A DNA stretch of 64,000 nt from an uncultured Acidobacteriota bacterium (lineage in GTDB: Bacteria > Acidobacteriota > Thermoanaerobaculia > UBA5066 > Gp7-AA6): NCBI GenBank assembly GCA_963847075.1, contig CAWJYL010000001.1, forward strand, positions 320,682 to 384,681. The letters are read 5' to 3'. Position 1 is the stretch's first letter, and the number at the start of each line of letters is the position of its first letter. Of this stretch, positions 6,762 through 25,043 are shown piece after piece. The notes under the pieces were generated by a model, which worked only from the letters and a program-made list of their open reading frames with translations, had not been told where the DNA came from and did not search any database. The translations under genes were made by a program, and so were the position numbers.

Positions 6762-6838
6762 CGGGATGTGGCGCAGTCTGGTAGCGTACCTGAATGGGGT
6801 TCAGGGGGTCCCGGGTTCGAATCCCGGCATCCCGACCA
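6762..6838 (+). tRNA. tRNA-Pro (anticodon GGG)
   Basis: Folded by hand. Acceptor CGGGATG/CATCCCG, D-arm GCGC-AGTCTGGTA-GCGT, anticodon stem CCTGA/TCAGG with loop ATGGGGT (anticodon GGG, G37), T-arm CCGGG-TTCGAAT-CCCGG, discriminator A, encoded CCA. 77 nt. Confidence 0.9.
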
Positions 6839-7182: not shown

Positions 7183-8238
7183 GTGATGCCTTCCAAAGCC
7201 GAGCGCGAAGGTCGCGCCAGGAATGTCTTCCGAGCGGTCCTCCTTCTGGCCGGCATCAGCCTGGCCGTGCTCCTCGTGTGGAAGACGGGCTGGCCGGCGG
7301 TGCAAGCCAACCTCGCCTCGATAGGCTGGACGTTTTTTGGCCTGACGGCCCTCTACCTGCTGGCCGAGATCGCCTTCGTCCTGGGATGGCGGTCCGTGAT
7401 GGAACCCCATCCCCCACTCTCCAGCCTGCCGAACCTGCTGCGTATCTATCTGGCCGGCAACTCGCTCAACTACCTCTCCCCCGGAAGCGTTGCTGGAGAG
7501 CCCGTGCGCGCCAGCATGCTGCGCGACCGAATGGAGACCGCCCGCGCGATTGCCTCGGTGACGATCTTCAAACATGCGCACCTTCTTTCGCAGGCCTTCT
7601 TCGTCGCTACGGGTCTGGCCGTCGCGGTCGTTTTCTTCGACCTCCCCGAGGGGGTGCGTTGGGCGGCCCTGGCGAGCGTGGTGGTGCTATGCGGGCTCCT
7701 CGTCCTGATGACGTGGGCGCTTCAGAAGGGATCCTTCTCGCCCATCCTCTCGGCACTGTGCCGCTTCAAGCCGCTGGCGGCGCGGCTCGAGCGCCACAGG
7801 GAAGGGGCTCAGGCCCTCGACGAGCTGATCCGGCGCTTCTATGTCCATCGGCGCTCGCACTTCTTCGCGGCGGCCTTCTGGTGCCTGGTCGGCTGGTGCG
7901 GAGGGCTCCTCGAGACGTACATCGTGCTGCGCCTTCTCGCCCCGGGTCGGGGGTGGGAGACCGCGTGTGCCGCCGAGTCCCTCGCCATGCTGCTCAACAA
8001 CATGTTCCTATTCGTTCCGGGCCGCGCCGGAACGGCCGAGGGCATCCGCACGGGCGTCTTCGTTCTGCTGGGACTGCCCGCTTCCACGGGTGTGGCCTAC
8101 GGTCTCGTCCGCCGTGCGCGAGAGCTGCTCTGGGTTCTTCCCGGACTCGCGTTTCTCGCGCGCCGGCCAGCCCGGATTGCGACGCGGGCGGCGGGCGTCA
8201 ACAGTCCAAAGCTCGTCAGATCCGAGCGGGCGCGATGA
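7183..8238 (+). CDS. Flippase-like polytopic membrane protein (lysyl-phosphatidylglycerol synthase TM-domain / UPF0104 family-like)
   Basis: 351 aa with about 8 TM helices. N-terminal basic segment then LLLAGISLAVLLVW...; resembles the MprF N-terminal flippase domain without a synthase domain. First gene of a 4-gene translationally coupled operon. Confidence 0.75.
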   Translation: MMPSKAEREGRARNVFRAVLLLAGISLAVLLVWKTGWPAVQANLASIGWTFFGLTALYLLAEIAFVLGWRSVMEPHPPLSSLPNLLRIYLAGNSLNYLSPGSVAGEPVRASMLRDRMETARAIASVTIFKHAHLLSQAFFVATGLAVAVVFFDLPEGVRWAALASVVVLCGLLVLMTWALQKGSFSPILSALCRFKPLAARLERHREGAQALDELIRRFYVHRRSHFFAAAFWCLVGWCGGLLETYIVLRLLAPGRGWETACAAESLAMLLNNMFLFVPGRAGTAEGIRTGVFVLLGLPASTGVAYGLVRRARELLWVLPGLAFLARRPARIATRAAGVNSPKLVRSERAR

Positions 8239-8930
8239 CCCATCTCGCCGGGCCTTCCGCCCGGGTTCTGCTCTTCGACTTCGGCGGCACGCTCGACGCC
8301 GAGGGTGTGCCCTGGAAAGAACGGTTCTTCCGGTTGGCCCGCGAGGAGGGCCTCGACGTGCCCCAGCATGAGTTCGACCCCGCGTTCTACGCAGCGACGG
8401 ACGCCCTCGAAGGGAAGATCCCGGCGGTCAGCGGATTTCGCGAGACCGTCGACCGTGTCGCCGACGGGCTTGCCGCCCGGCTCGGGCGCGATAGAGCCCT
8501 CCTTCGGAGAGTTGGAGATCGTTTCAGCGACGAGTCCTTGCGGCAGCTCGGCCAGAGCGCGGCCCTGCTCTCTCGTCTGGCCGCTCGCCACCGCCTCGGA
8601 ATCGTGTCCAACTTCTACGGAAACCTCGAGGCCGTCTGCGCCGAAGCGGGATTGACTTCCTCGATCGGCGTTTCCGTCGATTCGAGTCTCGTGGGCTTCA
8701 AGAAGCCCGACCCCAGGATCTTTCAGGCGGCGCTCGACGCCCTCGGGGCGTTGCCGGCAGAGGCGATCTTCGTGGGCGACTCCCTGCGGCGGGACATGGT
8801 CGGGGCACGGGCGATGGGGATGCGGCACATCTGGCTCCGCTCGGAGGGTGGCGGCGCAGACGACGGGCCCTGCTGCCCGGGGGATCCCGTGATCGCGCGC
8901 CTGGCGGAGCTTTCGGGGCTCGGAATATGA
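8235..8930 (+). CDS. HAD superfamily hydrolase (likely phosphatase)
   Basis: ATG at 8235 overlaps the upstream TGA (ATGA). 231 aa. Motif I VLLFDFGGTLD, motif II LGIVSNF, motif III/IV KKPDPRIF...IFVGDSLRRD are the canonical HAD-IA motifs. The track ORF from 7278 carries an upstream out-of-frame artifact. Confidence 0.8.
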   Translation: MTHLAGPSARVLLFDFGGTLDAEGVPWKERFFRLAREEGLDVPQHEFDPAFYAATDALEGKIPAVSGFRETVDRVADGLAARLGRDRALLRRVGDRFSDESLRQLGQSAALLSRLAARHRLGIVSNFYGNLEAVCAEAGLTSSIGVSVDSSLVGFKKPDPRIFQAALDALGALPAEAIFVGDSLRRDMVGARAMGMRHIWLRSEGGGADDGPCCPGDPVIARLAELSGLGI

Positions 8931-9823
8931 AGCGTAGAACCCCGGAACTTCCTAACTGTCTGGGCATTTTTCGGGAAGTCGAGCACTCTCCGGGCCGCGA
9001 GGCCGATGACGCCGGGATCCTGGAGGCGGCGGGCCTCAGACTCGAGGCCGCAGGTTCCGGGTTCGTCGACTATCGCAGGCCGGAGTCGCTCGATGGCCTC
9101 GAAGAAAGTCTGCCTTCGCTCGCCTTCTCGATGTGCGAGGGCATGGCGGCGCTCGAGCGGCTGCGCGACTGGGAGCGCCGCGGAGTCTGCGTCGTGAACA
9201 GTCCCCGCTCGGTCGTCAATACCCATCGCGAACGAACGATTCCGTTGCTCGAGAAGCTGGCAATCCCGGTGCCGGAGAGCCTCGTGCTGGACTGCGGGAG
9301 CCCCCTTCGAAGGGGCGGCGAGGAGGACAGGCTCTTCTCGGCGTGCTGGATCAAGCAGGCGAGCGAGCACAAGACGCGCGAGGGCGACGTCGTCTTCGCC
9401 ACGGACCCGGCTTCGGTCCGGAGTGCACTCGATCGGCTGCGCAGCCGGGGCCTGCCTCGCGCGGTCGTCCAGGGCCACGTGGAGGGCGACCTTCTGAAAT
9501 TCTACGGCGTCGCCGACGCCGCGGCGGCGGCCCACGACGAGACGCCTTCCGCGACCTGGTTCACGTGGTTCTACCCCCGGGAACGCCCCGTTACCGGCCA
9601 CGCCTTCGACGCCCGTGCCCTCCGCGACATCGCCTCCCGTGCCGCGGCCGCGCTCGGCCTCGATGTCTGGGGAGGCGACGCCATCGTCACACGCGAGGGC
9701 CGGATGTTCGTGATCGACATGAACGCGTGGCCAAGCTTCGCCCTGTTTCGCGAGCAGGCGGCCGATGCCATTGCTGCACACCTCTCCTCGCGACTGCGCC
9801 GACTCGCGAGCGTGGCGGTATGA
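8927..9823 (+). CDS. ATP-grasp domain ligase (RimK/D-Ala-D-Ala-ligase-like fold)
   Basis: ATGA overlap with HAD. 298 aa: LEKLAIPVPESLVL...WIKQASEHKTREGDVVFATD...VVQGHVEGDLLKFYGV...MFVIDMNAWPSFA, ATP-grasp B and C subdomain motifs. Confidence 0.75.
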   Translation: MKRRTPELPNCLGIFREVEHSPGREADDAGILEAAGLRLEAAGSGFVDYRRPESLDGLEESLPSLAFSMCEGMAALERLRDWERRGVCVVNSPRSVVNTHRERTIPLLEKLAIPVPESLVLDCGSPLRRGGEEDRLFSACWIKQASEHKTREGDVVFATDPASVRSALDRLRSRGLPRAVVQGHVEGDLLKFYGVADAAAAAHDETPSATWFTWFYPRERPVTGHAFDARALRDIASRAAAALGLDVWGGDAIVTREGRMFVIDMNAWPSFALFREQAADAIAAHLSSRLRRLASVAV

Positions 9824-11058
9824 CGCAAGCCGGGACGCTGATTCTCGCCACCGGGCCCGCGGCCCCCGGATCCCCATCGGCGGAAACGATCGTTCTCGGG
9901 TTGCCCGTCGTCCGGCGCACGGCGCTCGCGGCAGTGCGCGCGGGGTTCGATCGTGTGTACGTCCTCGGCGAAGATGCCGGAGCGGTGAACCGGGCTCTCG
10001 AGGGGACGGCTGCACGGCCCTTTCCGCGCAACCCCACCGGGTCGGAGTTGGCGCCCGGCCGGATCGTCCTGCTGCCGGATCGGGTCGTTGCGACTCCGCA
10101 ATGGCTTCGCGGCCTTCTCGAGGAGCCCGCCGAGCCGGGCCGCCTCCATCGCCTGGGTCCCGGGGCGATCGTCGAGACTTCCGAGCCGGCCCCGCTCGCG
10201 CGCGCCCTGGCGCTCCAGCCGCACCTTTCCGCCGTGATTTCCGAGTGGGCTCTGCTACTGCCTGCGGCTTCGGTCGCCTCTCTGCCCGCCCCCATGCCGC
10301 TTCCCCCGGACCTCGCGGGAGCGGAGAGTCTTCTCCTGAAGAGCGTCGTGAAGAAGGAGGACGGAGTCCTCACGCGGCTCATCAGCCGGAAGATCTCGCT
10401 TGCGGTGACCCGGCGGCTCGCCAGGACCCGCGTGACCCCCAACGTCATGACGATCGTGTGCGTCGCACTCGGACTGGCGGCGGCGTGGTCCTTCGCCTCT
10501 CCGGCGCTGTCCCGCCAGATCGCGGGCGGAACGCTCTTCCTTCTCCACTCGATCCTCGACGGCTGCGACGGCGAGCTCGCACGGCTCAAGTTCCAGGAGT
10601 CCCGCCTGGGCGGCATCCTCGACTTCTGGGGAGACAACGTCGTGCACGTTTCCGTCTTCTCCGCGTTTGCGCTCGCCTGGAGCTCCGCGTGCGGAGAATC
10701 GTGGCCGCTCGTCCTCGGGGCCGTGGCCGTTGCCGGAACGATTCTTTCGGCCGGCTTCGTCTACCTCTATGCGATGCGGCCAAGGGCTGGCTGGAAAACC
10801 CGCCTGACGGCCGCCTCGCCGTCGCGCCGGTCACGCATGGCGCTGGTCCTGGACGCCGTGTCCGGTCGCGATTTCATCTACGTCGTGATGGTCCTCGCCG
10901 TCTTCGGCAAGGCCTACTGGTTTCTGGCAGCGGCATGCCTGGGAACGCCGGGGTTCTTCGTGGCCGCGGTCGTCGCCGCGCTCGGCACCCGCAGGCTTCC
11001 GGGCGCAGAGCCGCCCCTGTCACCGGCCGGGCAATCGAGCTCCCCGTCCCTTCCGTAG
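9820..11058 (+). CDS. Two-domain protein: N-terminal nucleotidyltransferase-like domain fused to a C-terminal CDP-alcohol phosphatidyltransferase membrane domain (IPCT/DIPPS-like architecture)
   Basis: ATGA overlap at 9820-9823. 413 aa. C-terminal domain has a perfect CDP-OH_P_transf motif, DGELARLKFQESRLGGILDFWGD, which is D-G-x2-A-R-x8-G-x3-D-x3-D, within about 6 TM helices. The N-terminal ~190 aa (TLILATGPAAPGS...VVRRTALAAVRAGFDRVYVLGE) resembles a sugar/alcohol-phosphate nucleotidyltransferase. The track ORF from 9133 has a low-complexity out-of-frame lead. Confidence 0.75.
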   Translation: MTQAGTLILATGPAAPGSPSAETIVLGLPVVRRTALAAVRAGFDRVYVLGEDAGAVNRALEGTAARPFPRNPTGSELAPGRIVLLPDRVVATPQWLRGLLEEPAEPGRLHRLGPGAIVETSEPAPLARALALQPHLSAVISEWALLLPAASVASLPAPMPLPPDLAGAESLLLKSVVKKEDGVLTRLISRKISLAVTRRLARTRVTPNVMTIVCVALGLAAAWSFASPALSRQIAGGTLFLLHSILDGCDGELARLKFQESRLGGILDFWGDNVVHVSVFSAFALAWSSACGESWPLVLGAVAVAGTILSAGFVYLYAMRPRAGWKTRLTAASPSRRSRMALVLDAVSGRDFIYVVMVLAVFGKAYWFLAAACLGTPGFFVAAVVAALGTRRLPGAEPPLSPAGQSSSPSLP

Positions 11059-11077
11059 GCGCTATCCCGCACCGGGG

Positions 11078-12238
11078 TCAGTATTGGTAGTAGTGGTACG
11101 GGGCGCCCGGGCCATACCACTTGTGATTCTTGAAGTTGTAGTAGATGCCGGCCTGCGTGTAGGGAATCCGAAAGAAATTGAAGAAGGCCATGATGCCCTT
11201 GCCCCACCAGGTCGTTTCCGGCACCCCCAGGGCTCTGGCGATTTCCGCAAAATTGAGCCCGAGCTCGACACCCACTTCCTGGTAGCGCGTCGGCAACGGC
11301 GGATCGTAGCCGAAGCCCTTGGTGAAAAAGGCAAACGACGTCAGGAAATACCTGGCGATGCCGGGCTTCCCGTGGAGACGCGTGATGAGCCCACCGAGCT
11401 TGAGATCCGCGACGTAGATCTCGTCCGAGTAGCTCCGGCCGAGCGACGGCTGGCTCGAGCCGATGGCTGCGGCGGGAATATCCGTGTACGCGTCGCCGAG
11501 CCGCAGCCCGACCAGATCCTGCAGGCAGTTGCGCTGAATCAGCAGCCCGGCCGTCGCACCCAGGATGTCGACCGTCAGGTCCTGCCACGACCATCCGTAT
11601 ACCGTGACCGCGTCGCCCGTCTCGACGAACATTCCCGCCAGGACCGTCGTGGCGAGGGCCAGGGTGAAGGACTGGTCCATCGTATGCCCCTGCGTCTGGT
11701 ACACCTCGAAGAGCAGGCGCGAGACCCCGCTCGAGACAGTGAAGTGCGACGCCTTGTCCGCGCCGCCGGCATAGGTGTCGTACTGGAACCATTTTTCGTC
11801 GGTGAAGTGCCAGGGCTGTGTGCCGTATTGAAGCGGAGCGCCGATCCCCTGGAGCATACCGCCGAGCAGCGCGCCGACTGTCCAGAGGGTCGTACCCGTG
11901 GTGAAGAGCTTCTTCGGGGGCGGTGGCGAGGCGGGAGGGGCGGGTTCCTGCGAACCCACGGTGTCGGACGGCGCCGCAGTCTCCGCGTCCGAGTCGTCCT
12001 CGCTGCCCCCCCCAATCCAGGGATACGAATGCTCGAGGTCGAGGAGGCCGAGCCCCGGCTCGCCCTCGAAACGGACGTCGGCATGGTAGTGCGGGCGGGG
12101 CGGGGACGCCGGGAAAAGGCGGAACTCCTCGGCTTTCGCGCCGAAGGTGACCGCGCCGAGAGCGGCTGCGAGCAGCATCGCCCGTCGGAACCGCGCTTCG
12201 CGCGGCGTGGCCGCGCCCCCAATCCTGAAACAATTCAT
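11078..12238 (-). CDS. Hypothetical secreted (periplasmic/outer-membrane) protein
   Basis: Start taken at MNCFRIGGAATPREARFRRAMLLAAALGAVTFGAKA, a signal peptide. An acidic/Pro-rich linker is followed by a ~300 aa aromatic-rich globular domain ending ...GPGAPYHYYQY. No family assigned. Confidence 0.55.
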   Translation of the reverse strand: MNCFRIGGAATPREARFRRAMLLAAALGAVTFGAKAEEFRLFPASPPRPHYHADVRFEGEPGLGLLDLEHSYPWIGGGSEDDSDAETAAPSDTVGSQEPAPPASPPPPKKLFTTGTTLWTVGALLGGMLQGIGAPLQYGTQPWHFTDEKWFQYDTYAGGADKASHFTVSSGVSRLLFEVYQTQGHTMDQSFTLALATTVLAGMFVETGDAVTVYGWSWQDLTVDILGATAGLLIQRNCLQDLVGLRLGDAYTDIPAAAIGSSQPSLGRSYSDEIYVADLKLGGLITRLHGKPGIARYFLTSFAFFTKGFGYDPPLPTRYQEVGVELGLNFAEIARALGVPETTWWGKGIMAFFNFFRIPYTQAGIYYNFKNHKWYGPGAPYHYYQY

Positions 12239-12513
12239 GACTCTGTTATTTAGGGACGCCGCATTATCTCCAAATCGGAGATTGCCGCAAGGCGGTCGAT
12301 TCTGACCGTCCGCTCGGCGCCCCCTTGCGTTGAGAATAGGATTCGAGGTCTTCGCAATGGCGACACAACGGTGGCCAGAGGCGCTGTTTTCGGCGAGAGG
12401 CCGACGTCGGGCGCGCAACACTCCGCGCCCGACGGTCGAGTAGCGCCCTGACGGGGCGTTCCGCGATCCCGCAGCCGGTCGAGGCCGGAAGCCAGATTCC
12501 CGCGTTAACGGGA

Positions 12514-13632
12514 GTGCGGGCCCTGGCGGCCTTTCTCGTTTTTTTTCACCACCACCCCACCCGGTGGCTGGAAGCCGGGCCGCTGATTCTCTGGTGGGAG
12601 CTGCACATCGGGGTCACTCTGTTCTTCGTCCTGAGCGGGTTCGTCATAACCTGGCGATACGAACGGCAGGCCCAGGCCCCCGGCTCGTACCTCCGAAACT
12701 ATTTCGTCAACCGGTTCGCGCGGATCTATCCCCTCTACTTTGCCCTCGTCGTTCCGACGATGCTTCTCTGGGGCGAGCGCTCTCCGCGCGTCTGGTTCTG
12801 GAATCTGACGGTCTTCTCCTGCTTTCACTCTGGAATCCCGCAGGCCTGGTCGCTGAGGGTCGAGGAGTGCTTCTACCTCTGCGCCCCGCTCGTGTTTCTC
12901 GCGTGGCGCCGGCACCCGGCCCTTCCCCTCGGCATCGCGGCGGTCGTTCTCGCGAGCCTCTATCCCGTTGCGAGCCTCCCGGCAGCGGACGGAACGCTCG
13001 GCCCGCCGCGGGATCTCCTGCTTTACACCTTCCCCGGGCGTTTCTTCGAGTTCTATGTCGGCATGGCGCTCGCGCGTCGCGTCATGGCCGCCGGTACGCG
13101 TCGTCGCGCTTCACGCCCATTCCCCCTCTTCACACTGGCAGGTGCGGCCGGCATCGGGGCCATCGTCATGACTCTGGCCGCCATCCATGCCTCGGCACCG
13201 GGCGCGTATACCTACGGCCTGTATCACCCCGCCGGGATCGTCCTGAACAACCTCGTTCTGCCGCTCTTCATCGCCGCGTTCTACTGGGGACTCATCCACG
13301 AGCGCTCGTGGCTCCAGCGCGCGCTCTCCGGAAAGACCGCCAGCCTGCTCGGTCGGAGCTCCTACGCCTTCTACCTCATCCACCTCGGGGCACTGCGCGA
13401 CTACCTGCTTGGACTTCTGGTCCTCGCTGCAAGCTTGCTGGGGCCCGGTGCGACAGCTGCGGCCACCCGGTTGACCCACCATATCGGAGGGCTCTTCCTC
13501 TGCGTCAACCTGCTCGCGATCCTGCTTTACAAGGGTGTGGAAGCTCCGGCGAACCGCTTCTTGCGCCGGCGCTTCGCGTTGACACCGGGCCGCCACGAGC
13601 CATCGACGGATGGCGTAGGCGCTACCCCTTAG
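12514..13632 (+). CDS. Acyltransferase family 3 (OafA/OpgC-like membrane O-acyltransferase)
   Basis: 372 aa with about 10 TM helices. N-terminal (LTG)VRALAAFLVFFHH and WWELHIGVTLFFVLSGFVIT are acyltransferase_3 hallmarks. The conserved N-terminus appears to begin a few codons upstream of the first canonical start (GTG 12514). Confidence 0.75.
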   Translation: MRALAAFLVFFHHHPTRWLEAGPLILWWELHIGVTLFFVLSGFVITWRYERQAQAPGSYLRNYFVNRFARIYPLYFALVVPTMLLWGERSPRVWFWNLTVFSCFHSGIPQAWSLRVEECFYLCAPLVFLAWRRHPALPLGIAAVVLASLYPVASLPAADGTLGPPRDLLLYTFPGRFFEFYVGMALARRVMAAGTRRRASRPFPLFTLAGAAGIGAIVMTLAAIHASAPGAYTYGLYHPAGIVLNNLVLPLFIAAFYWGLIHERSWLQRALSGKTASLLGRSSYAFYLIHLGALRDYLLGLLVLAASLLGPGATAAATRLTHHIGGLFLCVNLLAILLYKGVEAPANRFLRRRFALTPGRHEPSTDGVGATP

Positions 13633-15406
13633 AACGCCTTGACGCGGGCACAGACCCTCCCCTGCTCATGAGCCGCGGAATGAGCAAGAGCGCGCCGCCG
13701 TAGAAAACGAATGCGACGAAGAGGGTCATCGGAGTGCCGGACGGAAGATCCTCGATGAGAAGCTTGACCCCGCCGATGACGAGTGCGAGATAAGCAAGCG
13801 TTCGGAGCTCTCTGCGCGACGTCACGCGCCACAGGCGGGCGAGCGCGTAGGCGGAGACGCTCACCACGACGGTGCGCAGAGCCGGAAGGGGCGCGGCGAG
13901 GAGAGCGGCTGCCGGACGGCGAAGGCCGAGTACGGCCACCGCGCCGAGCCCGATCGCGGAGAAGAGAGCCGCGGTGAAGGCGGGAAGAGGGCCCGCTGCC
14001 GGCGGCTGCCAGATCAGCAGGCCGGCGACCCCGGCAGCCGCTGCGAGCGTCAGGAGGGCCGGAGCGTCGACGGGGGCCAGGGCGTTCTCGGGAGCGCCAA
14101 AGGCGAAGAGGGACGTCCTCAGCATGCCCGAGGCCAACATGGCCGCTGTCGCGAAGACGGCTGCCTGCGGCTGAAGGATCACAGGCTCGAAGCGTAGGCT
14201 GGCGGCTGCCACGACGAGCCCGAGCAGAGCCCACAACAGCGCTGGTGCCGGCGCCCGCAGAAGACCGTCGCTCCCGATGACGACGAGCGCGAGCCCGAAC
14301 CAGGCCCAGTAGAGCCGGCCTACCCGCGTTCCCGGCTCGCGCTCGCGACGAAAGGCGAGCGCATAGCTGCCGGCACCGCATGCGAGTGCCGCTGCGGCCA
14401 GAAGCGCCGTATTGCCTCCGGCCGCCCGTATCAGACCCAGGGCACCGCGGAGGCCGACCGCGAGCGCCAGAATGGCCTGCGCGATCGCGACGCCCGAGAC
14501 CTGAGGATGTCCGAGGAGAGTGCGCAACAGGATGCTGCCCGGCCAGAGGATCACGAGCCCGAGCGCGAGGGCAATCGGGAGAAGAGAACCGGTTGCCTCC
14601 GTCGGCGCCGGCCCCAATGCGCTCGCGGTCGCCCACAGCGAGAGGCCCACGGCGCAGAGAGTCGGAGGCCACGGAAGAAGCTGCCAGGTCCAGCGGTCCG
14701 GGCGCCATGACGCGGCTGCCGAGAGCCCGAGGAGCAGAAGACCGGCCGGTGCCGGCTGTCCCGTGTTGACCGCGAGGTACACCCCCGTTGCGCACGCCGC
14801 GAGCGTGGTCGTCCAGGCGATCGCGGGGAGATCGTCGCGCCGGGCGAGCGCAAGCCCGAACCCGGTTGCGAGCGCGAGAATGGCAAGGCCCGCGCCGACC
14901 GAGAAGATCGCGAAGCGCGTCGTGGTCTCGGCCACGATCGCGTCCGCGATGAAGACCCCCGTCGAACCCAGAAAAGCGGCAGTCAATCGGTTGCCGCGGG
15001 CTGCGGCGCGGTCCGCGACGACGATTATCCCCAGCGCGTAGGCCAGGCCGAGAGCGACGCCGGGAGCGGTCGCCATCGCTCCCCGGTCCGTCATGGCCCG
15101 CACGAGAAAAGCGCCGGCGAGCGTGAGGACGGTCCAGCCCGTCCGGGCGAGAACCTCGAGCGCGAGCGTGGAGGCCCCCGATCGAGCCGACGCCGGCTCC
15201 ACCGGGCTCTCGAGCTCGGGGGAGACGGCGTCCTGTGGCGCGTGCCCCGCAACGGTCCCGGCCGGGCCCTTCGGCCCTTCGCGCAGGGCTTCCTCGATCC
15301 TCCCGACTCTTCTCTCGAGCTCGGAAAGGCGATCCTCCTGCGATGGCGGCCCGGGAAATTGCGCGGTCACTGAAAACAGCCTCGCCTCAGAGCGGCGCCT
15401 CGACAA
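13622..15406 (-). CDS. Large polytopic membrane protein, DUF2339-like (N-terminal coiled-coil then many TM helices)
   Basis: 594 aa. N-terminal RLSELERRVGRIEEALRE is followed by more than 12 Ala/Leu/Gly-rich hydrophobic segments. Codon third positions are consistent with coding. The opposite-strand track ORFs are low complexity. Confidence 0.6.
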   Translation of the reverse strand: MSRRRSEARLFSVTAQFPGPPSQEDRLSELERRVGRIEEALREGPKGPAGTVAGHAPQDAVSPELESPVEPASARSGASTLALEVLARTGWTVLTLAGAFLVRAMTDRGAMATAPGVALGLAYALGIIVVADRAAARGNRLTAAFLGSTGVFIADAIVAETTTRFAIFSVGAGLAILALATGFGLALARRDDLPAIAWTTTLAACATGVYLAVNTGQPAPAGLLLLGLSAAASWRPDRWTWQLLPWPPTLCAVGLSLWATASALGPAPTEATGSLLPIALALGLVILWPGSILLRTLLGHPQVSGVAIAQAILALAVGLRGALGLIRAAGGNTALLAAAALACGAGSYALAFRREREPGTRVGRLYWAWFGLALVVIGSDGLLRAPAPALLWALLGLVVAAASLRFEPVILQPQAAVFATAAMLASGMLRTSLFAFGAPENALAPVDAPALLTLAAAAGVAGLLIWQPPAAGPLPAFTAALFSAIGLGAVAVLGLRRPAAALLAAPLPALRTVVVSVSAYALARLWRVTSRRELRTLAYLALVIGGVKLLIEDLPSGTPMTLFVAFVFYGGALLLIPRLMSRGGSVPASRRSKG

Positions 15407-15497
15407 GATACAAAAGAATCAGGCCCCGTCCGTCGGCCACGGGCTCACGGCGGCCTGTGATACGAATACGAGGGCTTCTCAAGTCGAGGAGGCTTCC

Positions 15498-17942
15498 ATG
15501 CGCGGGTTTCTTCGCCTCGCCCTTTCCACCGTAATTCTGGCGGCCGCCCTGGGGGCGTGGATCGCCTTCGCGCAGGCTCCCCCTGCCGACACCGGCGAAT
15601 ACCAGGGCGATCTCGAGTGGCCGCGTGTCATCCGGGACGGCGGCGTCACCTTCACGGTCTACACACCGCAAATCGACAGGTTCGACGGCACGGTTCTGGA
15701 AGCGCGCGCCGCCGTCCAGGTCGAGACCCCCGTCGGAGAGAAGACGCAAACGGCCTACGGCGTCATCTGGATCACGGCCAACGCTTTTATCGACAAGGAG
15801 ACCCAACTCGTTCAGCTCGACGACATCCAGGTCACGAAGGCGAACTTCCCGACAGCGGGCGACAAGACCCCGCAGTACCTGGACGTGTTCCGGCGCAACG
15901 TCGAGGCGGGGCGCACGATCTCCCTCGCGCGCATCGAGGCGAACCTCGCCGTCGCACAGGCGGACAAGAAGGGCAACGCCGTGCCTCTCAAGAACGACCC
16001 GCCGAGGATCTACTACCGCACTTCTCCGGCGATTCTCGTCATGATCGACGGAGACCCCGTCCTTCGGCCCGTCGAGGGGTCGGGGCTTCAGCGCATTCTC
16101 AACACCCGCAGCCTGATCCTGCTCGACGGAGAGTCCTCTTTCATGCCACTGGCCGACCGCTGGCTCACGGCGCCCACCGCCACGGGCCCCTGGCGCCTCG
16201 CCACGAGCGTTCCCTCCAGTGCCCGGGCCACCCGTGACGCGATCGCCAAAGACGAGAATCAGTCCCAGACCGAGCTCCTCGAGGAGCCCGGCGACGAAGT
16301 CCTGCGGCTGCTCGCGGCGGGCAAGATCCCCGACGTCATCGTCAGCACGGTTCCCGCGGAGCTCATCGTGACCGAGGGCGCTCCCGACATGAAGCCGATC
16401 GCGGGAACGCAGCTCCTCTACGTCACCAACACCACGGGAGACATCCTCCTCGATCTGAACGACCAGAGTTACTACGTTCCCCTGACCGGCCGCTGGTTTC
16501 GGGGAAAGTCGCTCGACGGCCCGTGGCAGTTCGTGGATGGCGAAGCGCTCCCGAAGGACTTCGCCAGAATTCCCGAAAACAACCCGAAGTCGAGCGTTCT
16601 CGCCACCGTACCGGGCACACCGGCCGCGCAGGAGGCCGTCATCGCCAACAGCATTCCGCAGACCGCGGAGGTCAATCGCGAGGAGGCGAAGTTCGAAGCC
16701 CGGTACGACGGCGAGCCGAAGTTCGAGCCGGTCCCGGACACACCGCTTCAATACGCGGCGAACACTCCGGTTCCGGTCATCCAGGTCGACCCGACCACCT
16801 ACTACGCCGTTCAAACGGGGGTGTGGTTCACGGGTGGCTCTCCCTACGGGCCCTGGCTCGTCGCGACGTCGGTTCCATCCGCGATCTACGCGATACCCAC
16901 GGCCTCGCCGATTCACTATGTCACCTACGTCCGCATCTATCGGTACAGCCCGACCTATGTCTGGGTCGGTTACACGCCGGGCTATCTCGGCACCTGCTAT
17001 TCGCCCTGGGGGACCGTCGTCTACGGCACCGGCTGGTACTACCGGCCCTGGATCGGAACCTACTGGTACGGCGCTCCGATGACGTGGGGCTTCGGCGTTG
17101 GCATCAGCTGGAATCCCTGGTACGGCTGGAACGTCGGATTCGGCTGGGGCGGCTACCGTCCGATCTACCGCCCCTACTGGGGCCCCTACTACGGCTACCA
17201 CCCGCGGCCGGGAACGGGATGGTACGGGCGCACCCCCGGGCCGGGCCGGCCCACGCCGTATGGCGGGCGGCCGGGCGTGAGCATCTCCAACATCAACGTC
17301 TACAACCGGCCCGGCATCGCGCGCCCCGGCGTGCGCCCCGCTCCGCGGCCGGCTCCGGTGTCCGCGGTCCGACCCGCACCGTCGACCCGGCCGGCAACCG
17401 GCACGGGGCGGCCAACGACCACAGGACCTTCGACGCGGCCCGCGCCCGGCACGGGCCCATCCAGGCAGCCGGCACCCGGGACGACGAATCCCGCGACCCG
17501 GCCGGCGCCCTCGCGCCCGGATAACGTGTATGCCGGCAAGGACGGGAACGTCTATCGCCCCAGGCCGAGCGGCGGATGGGAAACGAACGAGAACGGCAAG
17601 TGGAAACCCGTGGACGCTCCGGCGCGGCCGGGCAAACCGGACCAGCGACCGGCACCGCAGCCCGAGTCGCGGCCGGCACAGGGCGCCCGACCCGCTCCGA
17701 TGCCCGAGACTCGTCCCGCCCAGCCCCAGGGGCGCCCGGCCCCGCAGACCCGGCCAGCGCCGAGCCGCCCGACAGTGGACCCGGGCACGATCAACCAGCT
17801 CTCCCGGGACCAAAAGGGCCGGGACATGGGCAACATGCGCGCAAACCCGCAACCGCAGCAGCGGACGGCGCCGGCCCCGCGCCCGGCCCCACAGAAGCCG
17901 GCGCCACAGAAGCCGCCGCCACAACCGAAGAAACCGAACTAG
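15498..17942 (+). CDS. Secreted protein with a ~530 aa globular region, a Tyr/Trp/Gly-rich segment and a Pro-rich RPAP-repeat C-terminal tail
   Basis: ATG 15498 with GAGGAGG 6 nt upstream. Signal peptide MRGFLRLALSTVILAAALGAWIAFAQA. Residues about 560-660 are YRYSPTYVWVGYTPGYLGTCYSPWGTVVYGTGWYYRPWIGTYWYGAPMTWGFGVGISWNPWYGWNVGFGWGGYRPIYRPYWGPYYGY. Then about 230 aa of RPAP/RPAPxxG repeats ending QKPPPQPKKPN. The track ORF from 15093 is a read-through artifact antisense to the upstream gene. Confidence 0.7.
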   Translation: MRGFLRLALSTVILAAALGAWIAFAQAPPADTGEYQGDLEWPRVIRDGGVTFTVYTPQIDRFDGTVLEARAAVQVETPVGEKTQTAYGVIWITANAFIDKETQLVQLDDIQVTKANFPTAGDKTPQYLDVFRRNVEAGRTISLARIEANLAVAQADKKGNAVPLKNDPPRIYYRTSPAILVMIDGDPVLRPVEGSGLQRILNTRSLILLDGESSFMPLADRWLTAPTATGPWRLATSVPSSARATRDAIAKDENQSQTELLEEPGDEVLRLLAAGKIPDVIVSTVPAELIVTEGAPDMKPIAGTQLLYVTNTTGDILLDLNDQSYYVPLTGRWFRGKSLDGPWQFVDGEALPKDFARIPENNPKSSVLATVPGTPAAQEAVIANSIPQTAEVNREEAKFEARYDGEPKFEPVPDTPLQYAANTPVPVIQVDPTTYYAVQTGVWFTGGSPYGPWLVATSVPSAIYAIPTASPIHYVTYVRIYRYSPTYVWVGYTPGYLGTCYSPWGTVVYGTGWYYRPWIGTYWYGAPMTWGFGVGISWNPWYGWNVGFGWGGYRPIYRPYWGPYYGYHPRPGTGWYGRTPGPGRPTPYGGRPGVSISNINVYNRPGIARPGVRPAPRPAPVSAVRPAPSTRPATGTGRPTTTGPSTRPAPGTGPSRQPAPGTTNPATRPAPSRPDNVYAGKDGNVYRPRPSGGWETNENGKWKPVDAPARPGKPDQRPAPQPESRPAQGARPAPMPETRPAQPQGRPAPQTRPAPSRPTVDPGTINQLSRDQKGRDMGNMRANPQPQQRTAPAPRPAPQKPAPQKPPPQPKKPN

Positions 17943-19194: not shown

Positions 19195-20538
19195 TCAGCT
19201 CGAGAAACTGATTCCCATCCGGTCGAGCATCTTGAGAAACAGTCCCGGCCGCCCGCCCCGGTCTACCCGCCGCAGGGAGCGCGTCACGACCGAAACGGCA
19301 AGGCGCCGAAAGGGCTCGGGAGGGTAGGGAAACGGTTTCCTCCGCACCATCGAGAGCTCGAGCAGCGGGCTCGGGCGGTCGAGGGCGAGGTGAGCCAGGA
19401 TCTTCCCCGCCACGCGAGTCGATCCCACTCCGTGACCCGTGTAGCCCAGGCCATAGGACAAACACCCCCGGATCGTTCCGAAGAAGGGCGTCAGGCGCGT
19501 CGTCGAGGCGATGGGCCCGCCCCATGCGTACGCGAACTTCAGGCTCGATAGCTGCGGAAAGTGCCGCCGAAAGCTCTCCCGGAGCGCCGCATAGTGCACC
19601 GGCGAATTGTCGCAGGACGAATCGACGCGGTTACCACGATAGTAGGCCGCTTCGCTCGTCCCCCAGAGGATTCGCCCGTCGGCGGTGAGCCTGGAGTAGT
19701 TGAAGAACGTGCGCGCATCCACCACCCCCTGTCTCCCCCTCCAGCCGATCGCGTCATGCTCGGCACTGGTGAGCGGCTCGCTGACCAGGATGTAGTCGTA
19801 CAGGGGGAGGAATCGCCGCGTCAGGCCGGGGAAGAGGTGATGGGAGTACGCGTTGGTCGCGAGGACCACGCGACGCGCCCGCACGGTCCCGGACGCGGCC
19901 TCGACGGCGACTCCGTCCCGCGAGAACGCGAAGCCGCAGACCGCGGTTCTCTCGTGCAGCCGCACACCCAGGCGGATGGCCTGCTCGCGCAGCCCCTCGA
20001 TGAGGCCCACCGGATCGACGAGGGCGCTTCGCGGCGCAAGCAGCCCGCCTCGATACAAAGGGCTCAGGATTTCTGCCCGGGTCTGCGCCCCGGACAGCAT
20101 GCGCCAGCCTGTCGCTCCGACGCGCTCCGCCGCCACGAGTGAAACCTCGAGCGCATCGCGATGAGCCGGCGTCAGCGCCACGAGGAGCTGGCCGGGCCGC
20201 TCCCATCCCGCCTCGATCCCCCTCTCCCGAAGGAACCGCTCCATCTCGTCCAGATTGTCGCGGCCGATCCGGGCGAGCTCCTTCGCCTCGTCGAGCCCGA
20301 AGTGCGCGATGGCGAGATCGTGGGAGTGGTCCACCGTCTCGCCGACGATGCCCGCATTGCGGCCGCTCGCGCCATAGCCCGCGACCGCTTTCTCGAGCAC
20401 GACGACCGACGCCGACGGTTCGAGCTCTTTCAGGAAGATCGCAGTCCAGAGCCCCGTGAAGCCGGCGCCGATGATCGCGAAATCCGCGTCCGCCGTGCCT
20501 GAGAGCGCATCGGCCGGATGCGGCATCCGGGTCGCCAT
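19195..20538 (-). CDS. FAD-dependent oxidoreductase (DAO family; gamma-glutamylputrescine oxidase/PuuB-like)
   Basis: Start taken at MATRMPHP. Dinucleotide-binding DFAIIGAGFTGLWTAIFL...VLEKAVAGYGASGRNAG, with length and C-terminal motifs of the DAO family. The track ORF extends upstream to 20640. Confidence 0.8.
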   Translation of the reverse strand: MATRMPHPADALSGTADADFAIIGAGFTGLWTAIFLKELEPSASVVVLEKAVAGYGASGRNAGIVGETVDHSHDLAIAHFGLDEAKELARIGRDNLDEMERFLRERGIEAGWERPGQLLVALTPAHRDALEVSLVAAERVGATGWRMLSGAQTRAEILSPLYRGGLLAPRSALVDPVGLIEGLREQAIRLGVRLHERTAVCGFAFSRDGVAVEAASGTVRARRVVLATNAYSHHLFPGLTRRFLPLYDYILVSEPLTSAEHDAIGWRGRQGVVDARTFFNYSRLTADGRILWGTSEAAYYRGNRVDSSCDNSPVHYAALRESFRRHFPQLSSLKFAYAWGGPIASTTRLTPFFGTIRGCLSYGLGYTGHGVGSTRVAGKILAHLALDRPSPLLELSMVRRKPFPYPPEPFRRLAVSVVTRSLRRVDRGGRPGLFLKMLDRMGISFSS

Positions 20539-20679
20539 CCAGTAGCAGGACCGCTCGACGGGCGGGAAGTTCCCGTCATCCCGAGGGCCGGAGGTCCGAG
20601 GGATCCCTTCCTGCGCCGGGGTGTGACTGGGTTCGCTCAAAAGGGATCCCTCGCTCCGCTCGGGGTGACGGAAGGACGC

Positions 20680-22029
20680 TTACAGCCGGTGCTCCCTGTA
20701 TACGTCCTGGATCGACGCCTCGAGTGCGGCGAGGAAGCGATCGATCTCCGGGTAACTGATGACGAGCGGAGGCTCGACCCGCAGGACCTGCGCATTGATG
20801 TACGTGCCGGAAATCAGGATGCCGCGGCCGAAGAGCGCCTTGGCGACCGCGTACCCGAGGTCGTGGTTGACGAACTCCATGCCGAGCATGAGTCCCCGGC
20901 CCCGCGCGCCCTGCATGACCTTCGGATACTTTCCCGCCAGAGCATTCATCCGCGGGAGCATGTAGGCGCCCTTCTCTCCCGCTTGCTTCGGCAGATCCTC
21001 CTCGAGCAGGACGTGGATCGTGGCGATCGCGGCGGCGCAGCACACCGGGTTGCCGCCGAAGGTGGTCGTGTGGAGGAACGGGTTGTCGATGTATCTCTCC
21101 CAGGTCTTCGGCGTCCCGACGCAGACCCCGATCGGCATCACGCCGCCGCCGAAACCCTTGCCGAGCGCCATCAGATCCGGCACCACGCCGTCGTGCTCGC
21201 AGCAGAACATCTTCCCGCTGCGCCCCATGCCGCTCTGGACCTCGTCGAAGACGAGCACGGCGCCGTACCTGTCGCAGATCTCGCGCGCCGCGGCGAGGTA
21301 TCCCGGGGGCGCCACGTTGATCCCGCCCTCTCCCTGGATCGGCTCGATGACGACCGCGGCGACTTTGTCCCCGGAGAAGTCGCCGCTCGCGACGATCATC
21401 CGGAGCGCGTCGGCGTCGCCGAAGGGGACGTGAGTCCAGCGCTTGAGCGGCAGGAAGGGCTCGCGGAATACCGCCTTGGAGGTGCCTCCGAGCGATCCGA
21501 GCGACTTGCCGTGAAAGGCGCCGATCGTCCCGACGAAATGGTGCCGTCCGGTCGTCAGGATCGCCATCTTGAGGCAGGCCTCGATCGATTCCGTACCCGA
21601 GTTCGTGAAGAACGAGTACTGGAGATCCCCCGGCGTGATCATCGCCACCAGGCGCGCGAGGTACGTCCGCAGCGGGTCGATCAGCTCCTGGGAGTGGATG
21701 GCCTGCTTGTCCAGCTGCTCCCGGACGGCTTTCAGGACCTTGGGATGCCGGTGCCCGGTGACGTAGATGCCAAAGCCCCCGAGCATGTCGAGAAACTCCT
21801 TACCCTGGACGTCGCGAAAGACCGCCCCCTCGTCGGACCACTCGACGGCCGTGTAATCCGTGCTGACGGACTTGCGGTACTCGAGAAAGGCCGGGTTCAC
21901 GTAGTCGGTCCAGTAGCGGACCGACTCCTCGATGACCCGTTTCTGCTCCGGGGGGGTCAGAGCCTTCTTGCCGATGAGCTCCAGGACGTGCGCGGATTCC
22001 TCGCGCGCGGCCTTCAAGTTCTGGGCCAT
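20680..22029 (-). CDS. patA: Class-III aminotransferase, putrescine aminotransferase (PatA/YgjG)-like
   Basis: Start at MAQNLKAAREE (ATG 22029) with GGAAGGGAGA RBS. FLEYRKSVSTDY..., PLP-lysine region DEVQSGMGRSGKMF, TTFGGNP. About 450 aa. Confidence 0.85.
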   Translation of the reverse strand: MAQNLKAAREESAHVLELIGKKALTPPEQKRVIEESVRYWTDYVNPAFLEYRKSVSTDYTAVEWSDEGAVFRDVQGKEFLDMLGGFGIYVTGHRHPKVLKAVREQLDKQAIHSQELIDPLRTYLARLVAMITPGDLQYSFFTNSGTESIEACLKMAILTTGRHHFVGTIGAFHGKSLGSLGGTSKAVFREPFLPLKRWTHVPFGDADALRMIVASGDFSGDKVAAVVIEPIQGEGGINVAPPGYLAAAREICDRYGAVLVFDEVQSGMGRSGKMFCCEHDGVVPDLMALGKGFGGGVMPIGVCVGTPKTWERYIDNPFLHTTTFGGNPVCCAAAIATIHVLLEEDLPKQAGEKGAYMLPRMNALAGKYPKVMQGARGRGLMLGMEFVNHDLGYAVAKALFGRGILISGTYINAQVLRVEPPLVISYPEIDRFLAALEASIQDVYREHRL

Positions 22030-22186
22030 TGCTGCTGTCTCCCTTCCGCGAAATCGGCGCGATGCTATCACCGCAAAACTCAGTGCCGCAGTGACTTCCG
22101 AGCCGTTGCAGACCCCCTCTGGCGGCCCTTCATGCCCCCGTGGTAGGCTGGCATTTCCTCGTTCAAACCTGCTCGGGTGCTTCATC
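22030..22186. promoter_or_regulatory. Divergent intergenic/promoter region between the patA-like gene (minus strand) and the gabT-like gene (plus strand)
   Basis: 157 bp non-coding between two divergently oriented start codons. No confident promoter motif was identified. Confidence 0.3.
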
Positions 22187-25000: not shown

Positions 25001-25043
25001 TGCTCCACTCGGGAGCCGGCGGCCGAACAGCGGGCCGGGCCGT

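Follow-up and report, generated by a model that had tools for sequence, protein, structure and literature searches.

The four plus-strand genes at positions 7183-11058 of the 64-kb window (the whole stretch of DNA analyzed) form a genuine and tightly coupled operon of an uncultured soil Acidobacterium. As judged by sequence comparison, the operon is a reduced, Acidobacteriota-specific paralog (type A) of a widespread eight-gene cluster (type B). We tentatively assign type A to a widespread, uncharacterized inositol-dependent pathway, in which its most likely, though far from assured, role is to build an inositol-type phosphodiester head group that is passed outward. No characterized counterpart of the operon was found in the literature or the comparisons searched, in keeping with the initial annotation of this DNA.

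Operon organization and the sister cluster

The genes g1 (7183-8238, 351 aa), g2 (8235-8930, 231 aa), g3 (8927-9823, 298 aa), and g4 (9820-11058) are all on the + strand and are chained by ATGA start/stop overlaps, read from the sequence at 8235-8238, 8927-8930, and 9820-9823, as the initial annotation had described. Among related loci, the 4-bp overlap is kept in 26/26 cases for g1|g2, 25/26 for g2|g3, and 21/25 for g3|g4, indicating coupling beyond chance. Two of the g3|g4 exceptions (L018 and L022) replace the overlap with an in-frame g3::g4 fusion. The same gene order and overlaps, and the fusion as well, recur across 24 related Acidobacteriota loci, and no promoter- or terminator-like sites within the operon rise above shuffled expectation. 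The genes had been taken for an obligate co-expressed module, and the neighborhood comparison bears this out, with all four co-occurring across genomes.

The type B order is g1-HAD-NTase-g3-Aminotran_3-GFO/IDH/MocA-g4-MIPS, shared by up to 53 of the 55 loci, which come from Acidobacteriota, Methylomirabilota/Rokubacteria, and Nitrospirota. Beyond the type A genes, it contains a myo-inositol-1-phosphate synthase (MIPS), a presumably active NTP transferase, an aminotransferase, and a GFO/IDH/MocA oxidoreductase. This larger MIPS-containing sister cluster was overlooked in the earlier work. A type B cluster is present as well in at least 17 of the genomes with type A, and all homologs derive from uncultured MAGs. 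The presence of MIPS in type B ties the paralogous core enzymes to inositol-1-phosphate, and residues of g3 (R16, E17, H20, S21, P22, G23, R24, D27, D28, D264, and N266) and of g4 that are invariant across both types indicate the same core chemistry. MIPS, the NTP transferase, squalene-hopene cyclase (SHC), and a type B cluster are all absent from the 64-kb window, so the donor and acceptor of this particular copy are guesses.

A close pathway counterpart in logic is the di-myo-inositol-phosphate (DIP) pathway (MIPS, IPCT/DIPPS, and DIPP phosphatase), which has a DIPPS-type CDP-alcohol phosphotransferase and a phosphatase step expected after transfer, as here. The sister type B clusters, with MIPS and a cytidylyltransferase-type gene, carry its full gene logic, and a minimal variant (L030, HAD-NTase-g3-g4-MIPS) amounts to the DIP gene set plus the ATP-grasp gene. 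The operon departs from it in the degenerate cytidylyltransferase domain of g4, in a probable phosphatase of the HAD-IA type with Gly at D+2, and in the added ATP-grasp enzyme, PF03706 protein, and DUF2279 neighbor; type B further adds the aminotransferase and oxidoreductase. The operon hosts are uncultured bacteria represented by soil and groundwater MAGs.

The CDP-alcohol phosphotransferase

The C-terminal domain of g4 (10300-11058, +) is a 6-TM class I CDP-alcohol phosphotransferase, matching PF01066 with 41 bits over residues 205-326. The catalytic signature D247xxD250GxxAR(x8)GxxxD268xxxD272 is complete, contains the previously quoted motif DGELARLKFQESRLGGILDFWGD, and is invariant in 56 homologs. 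The structural model predicts one juxtamembrane helix followed by six TM helices. AF2299 of Archaeoglobus fulgidus (4o6m) is the best sequence match (6.5e-19 with a single sequence, 7.9e-34 with a profile), followed by IPCT/DIPPS (4mnd; 5e-13 and 9.5e-22, respectively), and these two are also closest in fold, supporting the initial assignment to the DIPPS/AF2299 type. The similarity to PIPS is far weaker (4e-13, against 7.9e-34 and 9.5e-22). The best NCBIfam match is the IPCT/DIPPS equivalog, which scores 85.7 against a cut-off of 580 and covers the DIPPS half only.

AF2299 has the same build as g4, a short nucleotidyltransferase-like cytosolic domain lacking the catalytic signature joined to a 6-TM CDP-alcohol phosphotransferase. 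The two proteins share 'LLGLxLxxR..RAGF', 'RK[IV]SL', and 'HSI[LI]DGCDGE[LI]ARLKFxES'; the juxtamembrane R-K-[IV]-S-L motif is also common to IPCT/DIPPS and is missing from PIPS. AF2299 differs in being archaeal and stand-alone, with no ATP-grasp, HAD, or PF03706 partners, and after the fourth catalytic Asp (D272) g4 has 'NVVH' rather than 'R[YF]xD'. The AF2299 structure was determined in complex with CDP-glycerol. Neither AF2299 nor DIPPS acts on lipids, and the acceptor of a 6-TM CDP-alcohol phosphotransferase is expected to be soluble (PMC4634129). A soluble product is thus conceivable here, in which case g1 would have no explanation.

The N-terminal domain (9820-10299, +, residues about 1-160) has a nucleotidyltransferase fold and is cytidylyltransferase-like, though probably non-catalytic. 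The GxGxR...K CTP-binding signature is absent, only G42 and R81 are invariant, and the Asp of 'LLPDRVV' is not conserved; R32, R33, R40, and R81 are conserved arginines. The related type B clusters encode a separate NTP_transf_3 protein with a canonical 'AAGEGSRLR..PKPLV' motif. Together, these features make the N-domain resemble that of AF2299, in which the cytidylyltransferase-like domain is non-catalytic (PMC4634129). It is most likely a pseudo-cytidylyltransferase, and the initial proposal of a bifunctional IPCT/DIPPS enzyme is not supported.

The partner enzymes

g3 is, as originally claimed, an ATP-grasp enzyme; it belongs to an unnamed family and has a RimK/LysX-like fold. RimK, LysX, and ArgX are its top structural matches and RimK-family ligases its top profile matches, in both cases across the whole domain. 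It is assigned to no Pfam family, and its sole Pfam match is Ins134_P3_kin (E = 0.057). ITPK1 matches span a D-x-N-A-[WF]-P motif. These last two observations raise the possibility, which we regard as doubtful, that g3 is a kinase rather than a ligase, acting with the HAD protein to re-position or install a cyclitol phosphate and so supply the alcohol-phosphate acceptor for g4. The g3::g4 fusion suggests such consecutive steps, and g3 is kept in the L030 cluster, where there is no aminotransferase and so no amine to acylate. The predominance of ligases among the leading matches argues against a kinase, as does its apparent redundancy in type B, where MIPS already delivers inositol-1-phosphate. 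This reading concerns g3 only and fits any of the products considered below.

g2 is a HAD-IA hydrolase (PF00702, PF13419, and PF13242; 71 bits against the HAD profile), with the DREG-2 subfamily as its best NCBIfam match, below cut-off. Its motif I, FDFGGTLD, places Gly at D+2, the general acid/base position, and all 70 orthologs recovered have [FL]D[FL]GGTLD with this Gly invariant. The protein is a probable phosphatase with an atypical motif I; it is a HAD protein, as given initially, and not a textbook phosphatase.

g1 is a polytopic PF03706 protein (LPG_synthase_TM, 'flippase-like'; 98 bits), which the profile search confirms as initially described, and is found in 24/24 type A loci. It exceeds the cut-off of the flippase-like domain model TIGR00374 (53.6 bits) and scores best against HpnL (TIGR03476; 133 bits, under the 195.65 cut-off), a hopanoid-locus membrane protein of uncharacterized function whose canonical members are mainly proteobacterial. 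Relatives of the operon sit in hopanoid loci, whereas the window copy is not beside hopanoid genes. MprF, an aminoacyl-phosphatidylglycerol synthase/flippase, has the same PF03706 transmembrane module and offers an analogous idea, a head-group-modifying enzyme paired with a flippase. Here, g1 is a separate protein, the operon has no tRNA-dependent synthase domain, and any acylation would depend on the ATP-grasp enzyme.

Convergent to the operon lies g5 (11078-12238, -), a DUF2279 protein (YfiM-DUF2279 'Lipocone'; PF10043, 49 bits against a cut-off of 28.6). Its start is uncertain, with the ORF reaching 12421; the protein has a predicted signal sequence, its C-terminal region finishes with aromatic residues, and it partially matches the YfiM family. 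In 19/24 type A loci a DUF2279 gene lies next to the operon in convergent orientation, a conserved neighbor that the initial annotation overlooked. By prediction, this family remodels the phosphoesters of lipid head groups in the outer membrane (PMC12419801).

Proposed function and alternatives

The analysis establishes how the genes are arranged, their folds and motifs, and their conservation, fusion, and synteny, whereas every substrate, the order of steps, and the flipping are inferred. The head group would be assembled on the cytoplasmic side of the inner membrane before being passed outward. g4 would use a CDP-alcohol produced elsewhere, moving its alcohol phosphate onto a soluble, probably inositol-derived alcohol phosphate, with the N-domain of g4 serving as a scaffold or binding a ligand; candidate donors are CDP-inositol and CDP-inosamine, which the type B NTP transferase would provide, and CDP-diacylglycerol. 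g2 would then strip the residual phosphate, as in the DIPP, PIP, and PGP synthase steps. The RimK-like g3, which would work physically with g4, may add a carboxylate (amino acid) to the head group or feed g4 its substrate. The HpnL-like g1 would translocate a lipid-linked product, and the outer-membrane DUF2279 Lipocone might remodel or transfer the head group in the envelope of hopanoid-rich membranes. The missing canonical acid/base Asp of the HAD protein counts against this scheme.

A phosphatidylinositol-type product is unlikely. In that case g4 would resemble PIP synthase (CDP-diacylglycerol plus inositol(-amine) phosphate) and g2 would be the PIP phosphatase, with g3 decorating the head group, g1 flipping the lipid, and DUF2279 using it in the outer membrane. 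Enzyme class, 6-TM fold, proposed inositol-phosphate acceptor, and phosphatase finish are all shared with PIP synthase and PIP phosphatase, and the build suits a lipid donor with a soluble acceptor. CDP-diacylglycerol is a ubiquitous CDP-alcohol, and no nucleotidyltransferase gene belongs to type A. g4 is also matched by the PIP and AIP synthase models, its 'RRSR' aligns with the RxxR acceptor motif of PIPS, and both the flippase-like g1 and the Lipocone indicate a lipid. However, g4 is far nearer AF2299 and DIPPS, reaching 40.9 bits against the 170 cut-off for PIP synthase; PIPS has neither a cytosolic N-domain nor the juxtamembrane motif, the g4 family does not keep the RxxR arginines, and the dedicated soluble nucleotidyltransferase of type B implies a soluble CDP-alcohol.

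Both cluster types repeatedly adjoin an SHC or HpnN-like gene, a linkage to hopanoid loci that had also been overlooked. It is conceivable, yet improbable, that bacteriohopanepolyols receive a phospho-(amino)cyclitol from the module, or that the module flips the conjugate, g1 being an HpnL-type flippase, as its best-scoring model would suggest. In 13/24 type A loci an SHC gene occurs no more than 8 kb away, and type A sits inside a hopanoid supercluster, exemplified by L008 (SHC, HpnA-like, HpnG, DXS, and LytB); the P0070 locus additionally has HpnH, and in both, DUF2279 is encoded on the same strand as shc and the remaining hpn genes, downstream of them. In four Methylomirabilis-type loci (L027, L031, L038, and L042) type B comes immediately downstream of SHC, and in Rokubacteria it neighbors an ArnT-like GT-C and an RND transporter resembling HpnN. 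Against this, no SHC lies within 8 kb of 51/55 type B loci, the hopanoid adjacency has been lost in the window's subclade although DUF2279 is kept there, the HpnL score of g1 is below cut-off, g4 does not have the extra helices found in lipid-acceptor enzymes, and no inositol-bearing hopanoid, phospho-BHP, or matching lipid is reported in the literature searched.

The least probable account is the original one, in which a truly bifunctional g4 synthesizes the CDP-alcohol itself before making a soluble, DIP-like phosphodiester that the HAD protein and ATP-grasp aminoacylation turn into a compatible solute: the top NCBIfam match, the soluble substrates of AF2299 and DIPPS, the L030 gene set, and N-domain arginines that could still bind a phosphorylated ligand are consistent with it, but the degenerate N-domain, the restriction of the NCBIfam match to the DIPPS half, the separate type B nucleotidyltransferase, and soil and groundwater hosts that are probably mesophiles oppose it, and it leaves the PF03706 protein, the DUF2279 neighbor, and the hopanoid synteny unexplained. 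What stands of that account is the co-expressed module, the class of the g4 C-domain, the ATP-grasp enzyme, and the flippase-like g1.

The outward-passed head group that we favor draws its membrane and envelope direction from the HpnL-like g1 and from DUF2279 in 19/24 loci. Arn (L-Ara4N lipid A modification) may be a logic analog of type B, with a nucleotide-activated polyol or sugar, oxidoreductase and aminotransferase, integral-membrane transfer, a flippase, and periplasmic or outer-membrane transfer; the ArnT-like GT-C adjoins type B in Rokubacteria locus L036. The enzyme families differ, a CDP-alcohol phosphotransferase standing in place of ArnC and PF03706 in place of ArnE/F, with inositol rather than a pentose, and the parallel goes no further than analogy. 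The operon probably makes and exports a polar head group that has yet to be described.

Operon structure and genomic setting

The four plus-strand genes described as a chain in the initial annotation encode an HpnL-like membrane protein (g1, 7183-8238, 351 aa), a HAD protein (g2, 8235-8930, 231 aa), an ATP-grasp protein (g3, 8927-9823, 298 aa), and a two-domain CDP-alcohol phosphotransferase (g4, 9820-11058, 412 aa). The reading frames and junction sequences confirm that arrangement, with each start codon overlapping the preceding stop within an ATGA at 8235-8238, 8927-8930, and 9820-9823. A convergent gene, g5 (11078-12238, minus strand), which encodes a DUF2279 protein, has its stop codon 19 bp from that of g4. 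On the 5′ side lie a tRNA-Pro gene (6762-6838), a PTPS/QueD gene, and surE. With Rfam, the spacer upstream of the operon matches tRNA-Pro only, and no promoter- or terminator-like site within the g1-g4 block exceeds shuffled expectation.

Homologues of g3 and g4 are numerous (~1200 and ~1750 protein clusters, respectively); among the matches listed, none has a specific name and all derive from metagenomes or MAGs. Searching the GTDB species genomes with the g3 alignment turned up relatives in 330 of them, from which 79 loci were retrieved. The hosts are mostly Acidobacteriota (including Thermoanaerobaculia), Methylomirabilota/Rokubacteria, and Nitrospirota, with a few Elusimicrobia, Verrucomicrobia, and Alphaproteobacteria MAGs. 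The neighborhoods of two homologous proteins, P0040 and P0070, were also examined. Based on tblastn of the window proteins against the retrieved loci, two types are distinguished. The ATP-grasp protein clusters number more than 1200 in a search anchored on type A and more than 2200 in a search with type B.

Type A comprises 24 loci that share the compact g1-g2-g3-g4 block of the window at 56-84% identity. The 4-bp overlaps are retained at g1|g2 in 26/26, at g2|g3 in 25/26, and at g3|g4 in 21/25 loci, which bears out the expectation that the four genes co-occur in related genomes. At the last junction, g3 and g4 are fused in frame in L018 (8001-10073), L022 (8001-10016), and P0070 (61% identity to g3 over 291 residues). 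These checked fusions carry an ATP-grasp, a pseudo-cytidylyltransferase, and a CDP-alcohol phosphotransferase, and all fall within the type A clade, which is separate and confined to Acidobacteriota in neighbor-joining trees of both g3 and g4. About 10 g4 matches are ~700 aa long, a length suggesting that P0074, P0077, P0080, P0081, P0086, P0088, P0089, P0094, and P0102 are g3::g4 fusions.

The 55 type B loci are larger and ~45% identical to the window proteins. Their order is g1, HAD, NTP_transf_3 nucleotidyltransferase, g3, class-III aminotransferase, GFO/IDH/MocA oxidoreductase, g4, and then myo-inositol-1-phosphate synthase (MIPS); the nucleotidyltransferase and aminotransferase are each present in 53 loci, the oxidoreductase in 48, g4 in 46, and MIPS in at least 27. 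On a short contig, L030 has only HAD, nucleotidyltransferase, g3, g4, and MIPS, which is the gene set of di-myo-inositol-phosphate (DIP) synthesis plus an ATP-grasp. An extended version occupies L036 1-16783 (Ca. Rokubacteria CSP1-6, LDXP01000007.1). Its core order is g4-HAD-nucleotidyltransferase-g3-aminotransferase-oxidoreductase, flanked on one side by an IPCT-like nucleotidyltransferase, a short DIPPS-like CDP-alcohol phosphotransferase, an HpnL-like protein (176 bits), and a divergent MIPS, and on the other by an ArnT-like GT-C protein and an HpnN-like RND transporter (TIGR03480, 594 bits, below the cut-off). The locus thus holds two nucleotidyltransferases and two CDP-alcohol phosphotransferases. 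Among type B loci whose flank is complete, L026 (Acidobacteriota MFD04944.bin.2.204) alone lacks g4, the oxidoreductase, and MIPS 3′ of the aminotransferase. Three Methylomirabilis-type loci (L027 at 13918-15195, L031, and L038) have a purple-acid-phosphatase-like metallophosphoesterase after MIPS, at the end of the cluster. A query with type B for a cultured host returned MAG proteins only among the 120 matches listed.

A type B cluster is present as well in at least 17 of the genomes with type A, lying 5-7 kb off or on a separate contig, and the closest relative of the window has both (L024, type A; L075, type B). Within the 64 kb of the window there is no type B cluster, MIPS, nucleotidyltransferase, or squalene-hopene cyclase (SHC) gene. 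The window has a G+C content of ~67%. Just beyond g5 are an Acyl_transf_3 membrane acyltransferase (12514-13632, plus) and a DUF2339 membrane protein (13622-15406, minus), neither of which is kept beside type A in other loci. A 966-aa reading frame at 15042-17942 (plus) has a strong coding signature (GC3 0.84) and no Pfam match at E ≤ 0.001. The block at 19195-29231 resembles an island for the catabolism of amines or lysine, with a DAO-family FAD oxidase (19195-20679, minus), class-III aminotransferases at 20683-22257 (minus), 21917-23503 (plus), and 23573-25000 (plus), a saccharopine dehydrogenase-like gene (24984-26156), and an aldehyde dehydrogenase (27621-29231, minus). The aminotransferases are 31-35% identical to that of type B and are therefore not its orthologues. 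Elsewhere in the window are genes for hemerythrin/DUF2249, SurE, PTPS, YscW-like lipoprotein, TonB-type receptor, RNase R, and sulfatase proteins and two Proton_antipo_M subunits (complex I/Mrp type). Outside the operon and g5, the large genes of the window serve housekeeping or catabolic functions, and none of them is a hopanoid or inositol gene.

The ATP-grasp protein g3

The assignment of the third gene as an ATP-grasp holds. The AlphaFold model, built with 63 homologues (pLDDT 90.8), has the three-domain ATP-grasp fold with the conserved ATP/Mg ligands (Lys; Asp/Glu-x-Asn), and the family profile agrees. No Pfam family covers g3; its one faint match is with the ATP-grasp domain of ITPK (E 0.057). 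Together with a profile match to ITPK at the D-x-N-A-W-P motif, this could indicate a kinase instead of a ligase. We consider a kinase somewhat unlikely, since the ITPK profile match is limited to that C-terminal motif, whereas the match to RimK (5e-7) spans ~210 residues. The RimK likeness is one of remote profile similarity, with no Pfam RimK (PF08443) match to the window protein and scores of 19.7 bits against a cut-off of 143.4 for TIGR00768 and 24.8 against 350 for MptN, which place g3 outside the RimK family. From model and profile, g3 is predicted to be an ATP-grasp enzyme most similar to RimK-type ligases.

The membrane domain of g4

The CDP-alcohol phosphotransferase motif reported in the last gene stands up well. 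PF01066 matches residues 205-326 of g4 with 40.9 bits (cut-off 22), and the signature D247xxD250GxxAR(x8)GxxxD268xxxD272 is invariant among 56 homologues (D247, D250, G251, A254, R255, G264, D268, and D272). Signature and score together identify a class I enzyme. The top PDB relative is AF2299 (6.5e-19 with the single sequence, 7.9e-34 with the profile), followed by the A. fulgidus IPCT/DIPPS (5e-13 and 9.5e-22). In the g4 homologue P0095 (510 aa, Ca. Rokubacteria 13_1_40CM_2_70_45), ~100 residues covering TM1-TM4 are duplicated internally without any change, probably through an error of assembly or gene calling.

A module making a PI-type phospholipid from CDP-DAG would be expected to resemble the PIP synthases (PIPS), but these are far weaker relatives of g4 than AF2299 or IPCT/DIPPS, and the PIPS model NF045883 gives 40.9 bits (cut-off 170). 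The juxtamembrane R-K-[IV]-S-L motif is common to g4, AF2299, and DIPPS and missing from PIPS. The g4 segment RRSR does align with RPER of PIPS, though those arginines vary within the g4 family, and aligning the g4 pocket with the conserved acceptor arginines of PIPS (RxxR plus a TM6 Arg) gives an ambiguous result. We judge the PI-type module quite unlikely. The alternative of a standard PgsA or PIPS locus beside unrelated genes is rejected because of the conserved synteny, the g3::g4 fusions, and the low PgsA and PIPS scores.

The flippase-like and phosphatase-like proteins

The g1 protein matches PF03706 (LPG_synthase_TM, 98 bits) and scores above the cut-off of TIGR00374, a generic model of flippase-like domains. 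Among curated models, HpnL (TIGR03476) fits it best, with 133.3 bits, below the cut-off of 195.65; with no hopanoid genes in the window, g1 lacks both the score and the locus of a true HpnL. The sequence search for relatives of solved structure found none. MprF is excluded, as the 351 residues correspond to PF03706 alone, without the C-terminal aminoacyl-tRNA-dependent synthase domain. The function of HpnL itself is still called unknown in papers from 2025-2026.

Profile matches assign g2 to the HAD-IA hydrolases. Its motif I, FDFGGTLD, keeps the predicted nucleophile Asp, D14, and has Gly at the D+2 acid/base position of the DxDx[TV] consensus; the Ser of motif II (IVSN), the Lys of motif III (KKPDP), and motif IV (GDSLRRD) are in place and ordinary. 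All 70 orthologues recovered from the window and L001-L080 share [FL]D[FL]GGTLD with Gly at D+2, so the Gly is a feature of the family rather than a lesion. Gly at D+2 also occurs in YihX-type HAD phosphatases. Judged by sequence, this invariant motif sets g2 and its orthologues apart as a HAD-IA subfamily of their own, which may catalyze something other than simple phosphomonoester hydrolysis.

Hopanoid and envelope neighbors

A convergent DUF2279 gene follows type A in 19/24 loci. Within the Lipocone superfamily, DUF2279 falls into the YfiM-DUF2279 family, whose members are predicted to work in the outer membrane on the phosphoesters of lipid head groups and mostly occur fused or linked to an OMP β-barrel (PMC12419801). 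The window protein g5 scores 49 bits with PF10043 (gathering score 28.6) and apparently carries a signal sequence; its C-terminus is aromatic (...YHYYQY). There is no Pfam match in its C-terminal 150 residues, for which the alternating pattern and aromatic terminus suggest a β-barrel; no relative of solved structure was found by sequence.

In the P0070 locus, type A is bordered on one side by part of a type B cluster plus DXS and LytB and on the other by DUF2279, SQS_PSY, HpnG-like, HpnA-like, HpnH, and SHC genes. L008 is arranged in the same way (DUF2279 and hpn region at 10164-16815). In both, DUF2279 lies 3′ of shc and the remaining hpn genes on the same strand, converging on type A; the HpnA-like and HpnG-like genes are common to the two loci, and HpnH is present in the P0070 locus. 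Of the 24 type A loci, 13 have SHC within 8 kb, and four Methylomirabilis-type loci (L027, L031, L038, and L042) have it directly 5′ of type B on the same strand. The SHC neighbors of type A, together with HpnL as the best model for g1, favor direct modification of hopanoids by the operon. Against it stands the window, where g5 has no hopanoid genes beside it and still adjoins the operon, and we regard this function as decidedly unlikely. The window's type A subclade has left the hopanoid locus and kept its DUF2279 neighbor.

The cytosolic domain of g4 and the proposed pathway

With a nucleotidyltransferase fold preceding a six-helix CDP-alcohol phosphotransferase, g4 has the two-domain layout of IPCT/DIPPS. 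The initial annotation took the N-terminal domain for a cytidylyltransferase. This survives at the level of the fold, since the g4 family profile aligns LLGLpLvrR..aeRAGF to the AF2299 N-domain, and fails at the level of catalysis, where the Gly-rich GxGxR loop and Lys are absent and replaced by the variable, Pro-rich stretch ATGPAAPGSPSAE. No nucleotidyltransferase model in Pfam or NCBIfam matches residues 1-160. Only G42 and R81 are invariant across the whole domain, and the Asp of LLPDRVV is unconserved. The domain is thus best described as "cytidylyltransferase-like," a term applied to AF2299 and AfDIPPS (PMC4634129), and is probably non-catalytic; the conserved R32, R33, R40, and R81 suggest that it still binds some ligand. 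An active bifunctional IPCT/DIPPS making a solute is highly unlikely despite the shared architecture, given the missing signature and a score of 85.7 bits against a cut-off of 580 for NF041135, restricted to profile positions 207-348. The canonical NTP_transf_3 motif (AAGEGSRLR...PKPLV) occurs instead in a separate protein of related clusters, in 60 loci. This separation and the loss of the signature make g4 best called AF2299-like, in keeping with its homology to AF2299 over both the non-catalytic N-domain and the membrane domain.

CDP-alcohol phosphotransferases with lipid acceptors have extra helices, and AF2299 and DIPPS handle soluble CDP-alcohols (PMC4634129). The six predicted TM helices of g4, the motif shared with AF2299 and DIPPS, and the inositol-1-phosphate and nucleotidyltransferase functions of type B lead to the best-supported reading of the operon. 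The g4 enzyme would join a CDP-alcohol to an inositol-type alcohol phosphate, and g2 would take off the leftover phosphate. Physically coupled to g4, g3 would modify the head group or prepare the substrate; g1 would move the lipid-linked product across the membrane, and DUF2279 would act on it in the outer membrane. This sequence of five steps is advanced tentatively, at slightly less than even confidence. What the analysis demonstrates is the gene structure, folds, motifs, synteny, and fusion, and we infer the donor, the acceptor, the lipid or solute nature of the product, the order of steps, and the flipping.

A more specific proposal, and a quite doubtful one, is that types A and B place a phospho-(amino)cyclitol on a hopanoid or other envelope lipid. 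The head group would come from myo-inositol-1-phosphate through a CDP-cyclitol, the RimK-like ATP-grasp would provide a tRNA-independent acyl or aminoacyl decoration, and the conjugate would be flipped by the HpnL-type protein and transferred by the outer-membrane DUF2279 Lipocone protein.

The closest known protein to g4 is AF2299 and the closest known pathway to the operon is DIP synthesis, with PIP/PI synthesis, MprF, and the Arn pathway as partial analogues. All of these lack the ATP-grasp, the PF03706 partner, and the Gly-D+2 HAD of the operon as well as its DUF2279 neighbor. In searches of the literature on hopanoids, inositol, and CDP-alcohol enzymes, we found neither a description of the cluster nor inositol-bearing hopanoids. 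We rate the operon as a variant of the CDP-alcohol-based inositol phosphodiester pathways, with a real chance that it stands for a new class of envelope or hopanoid lipid.

The core enzymes form large families for which no characterized member was found, in phyla that are abundant and uncultured in soil and groundwater (Acidobacteriota, Methylomirabilota/Rokubacteria, and Nitrospirota). The recurrent links to SHC, HpnN-like, and HpnL-like proteins suggest a further branch of envelope/hopanoid lipid chemistry and touch on the role of HpnL. If the phospho-(amino)cyclitol lipid is real, it would be a new lipid class in these phyla and a candidate biomarker, and would provide the first functions for the HpnL-like, DUF2279, and g3-type ATP-grasp families.
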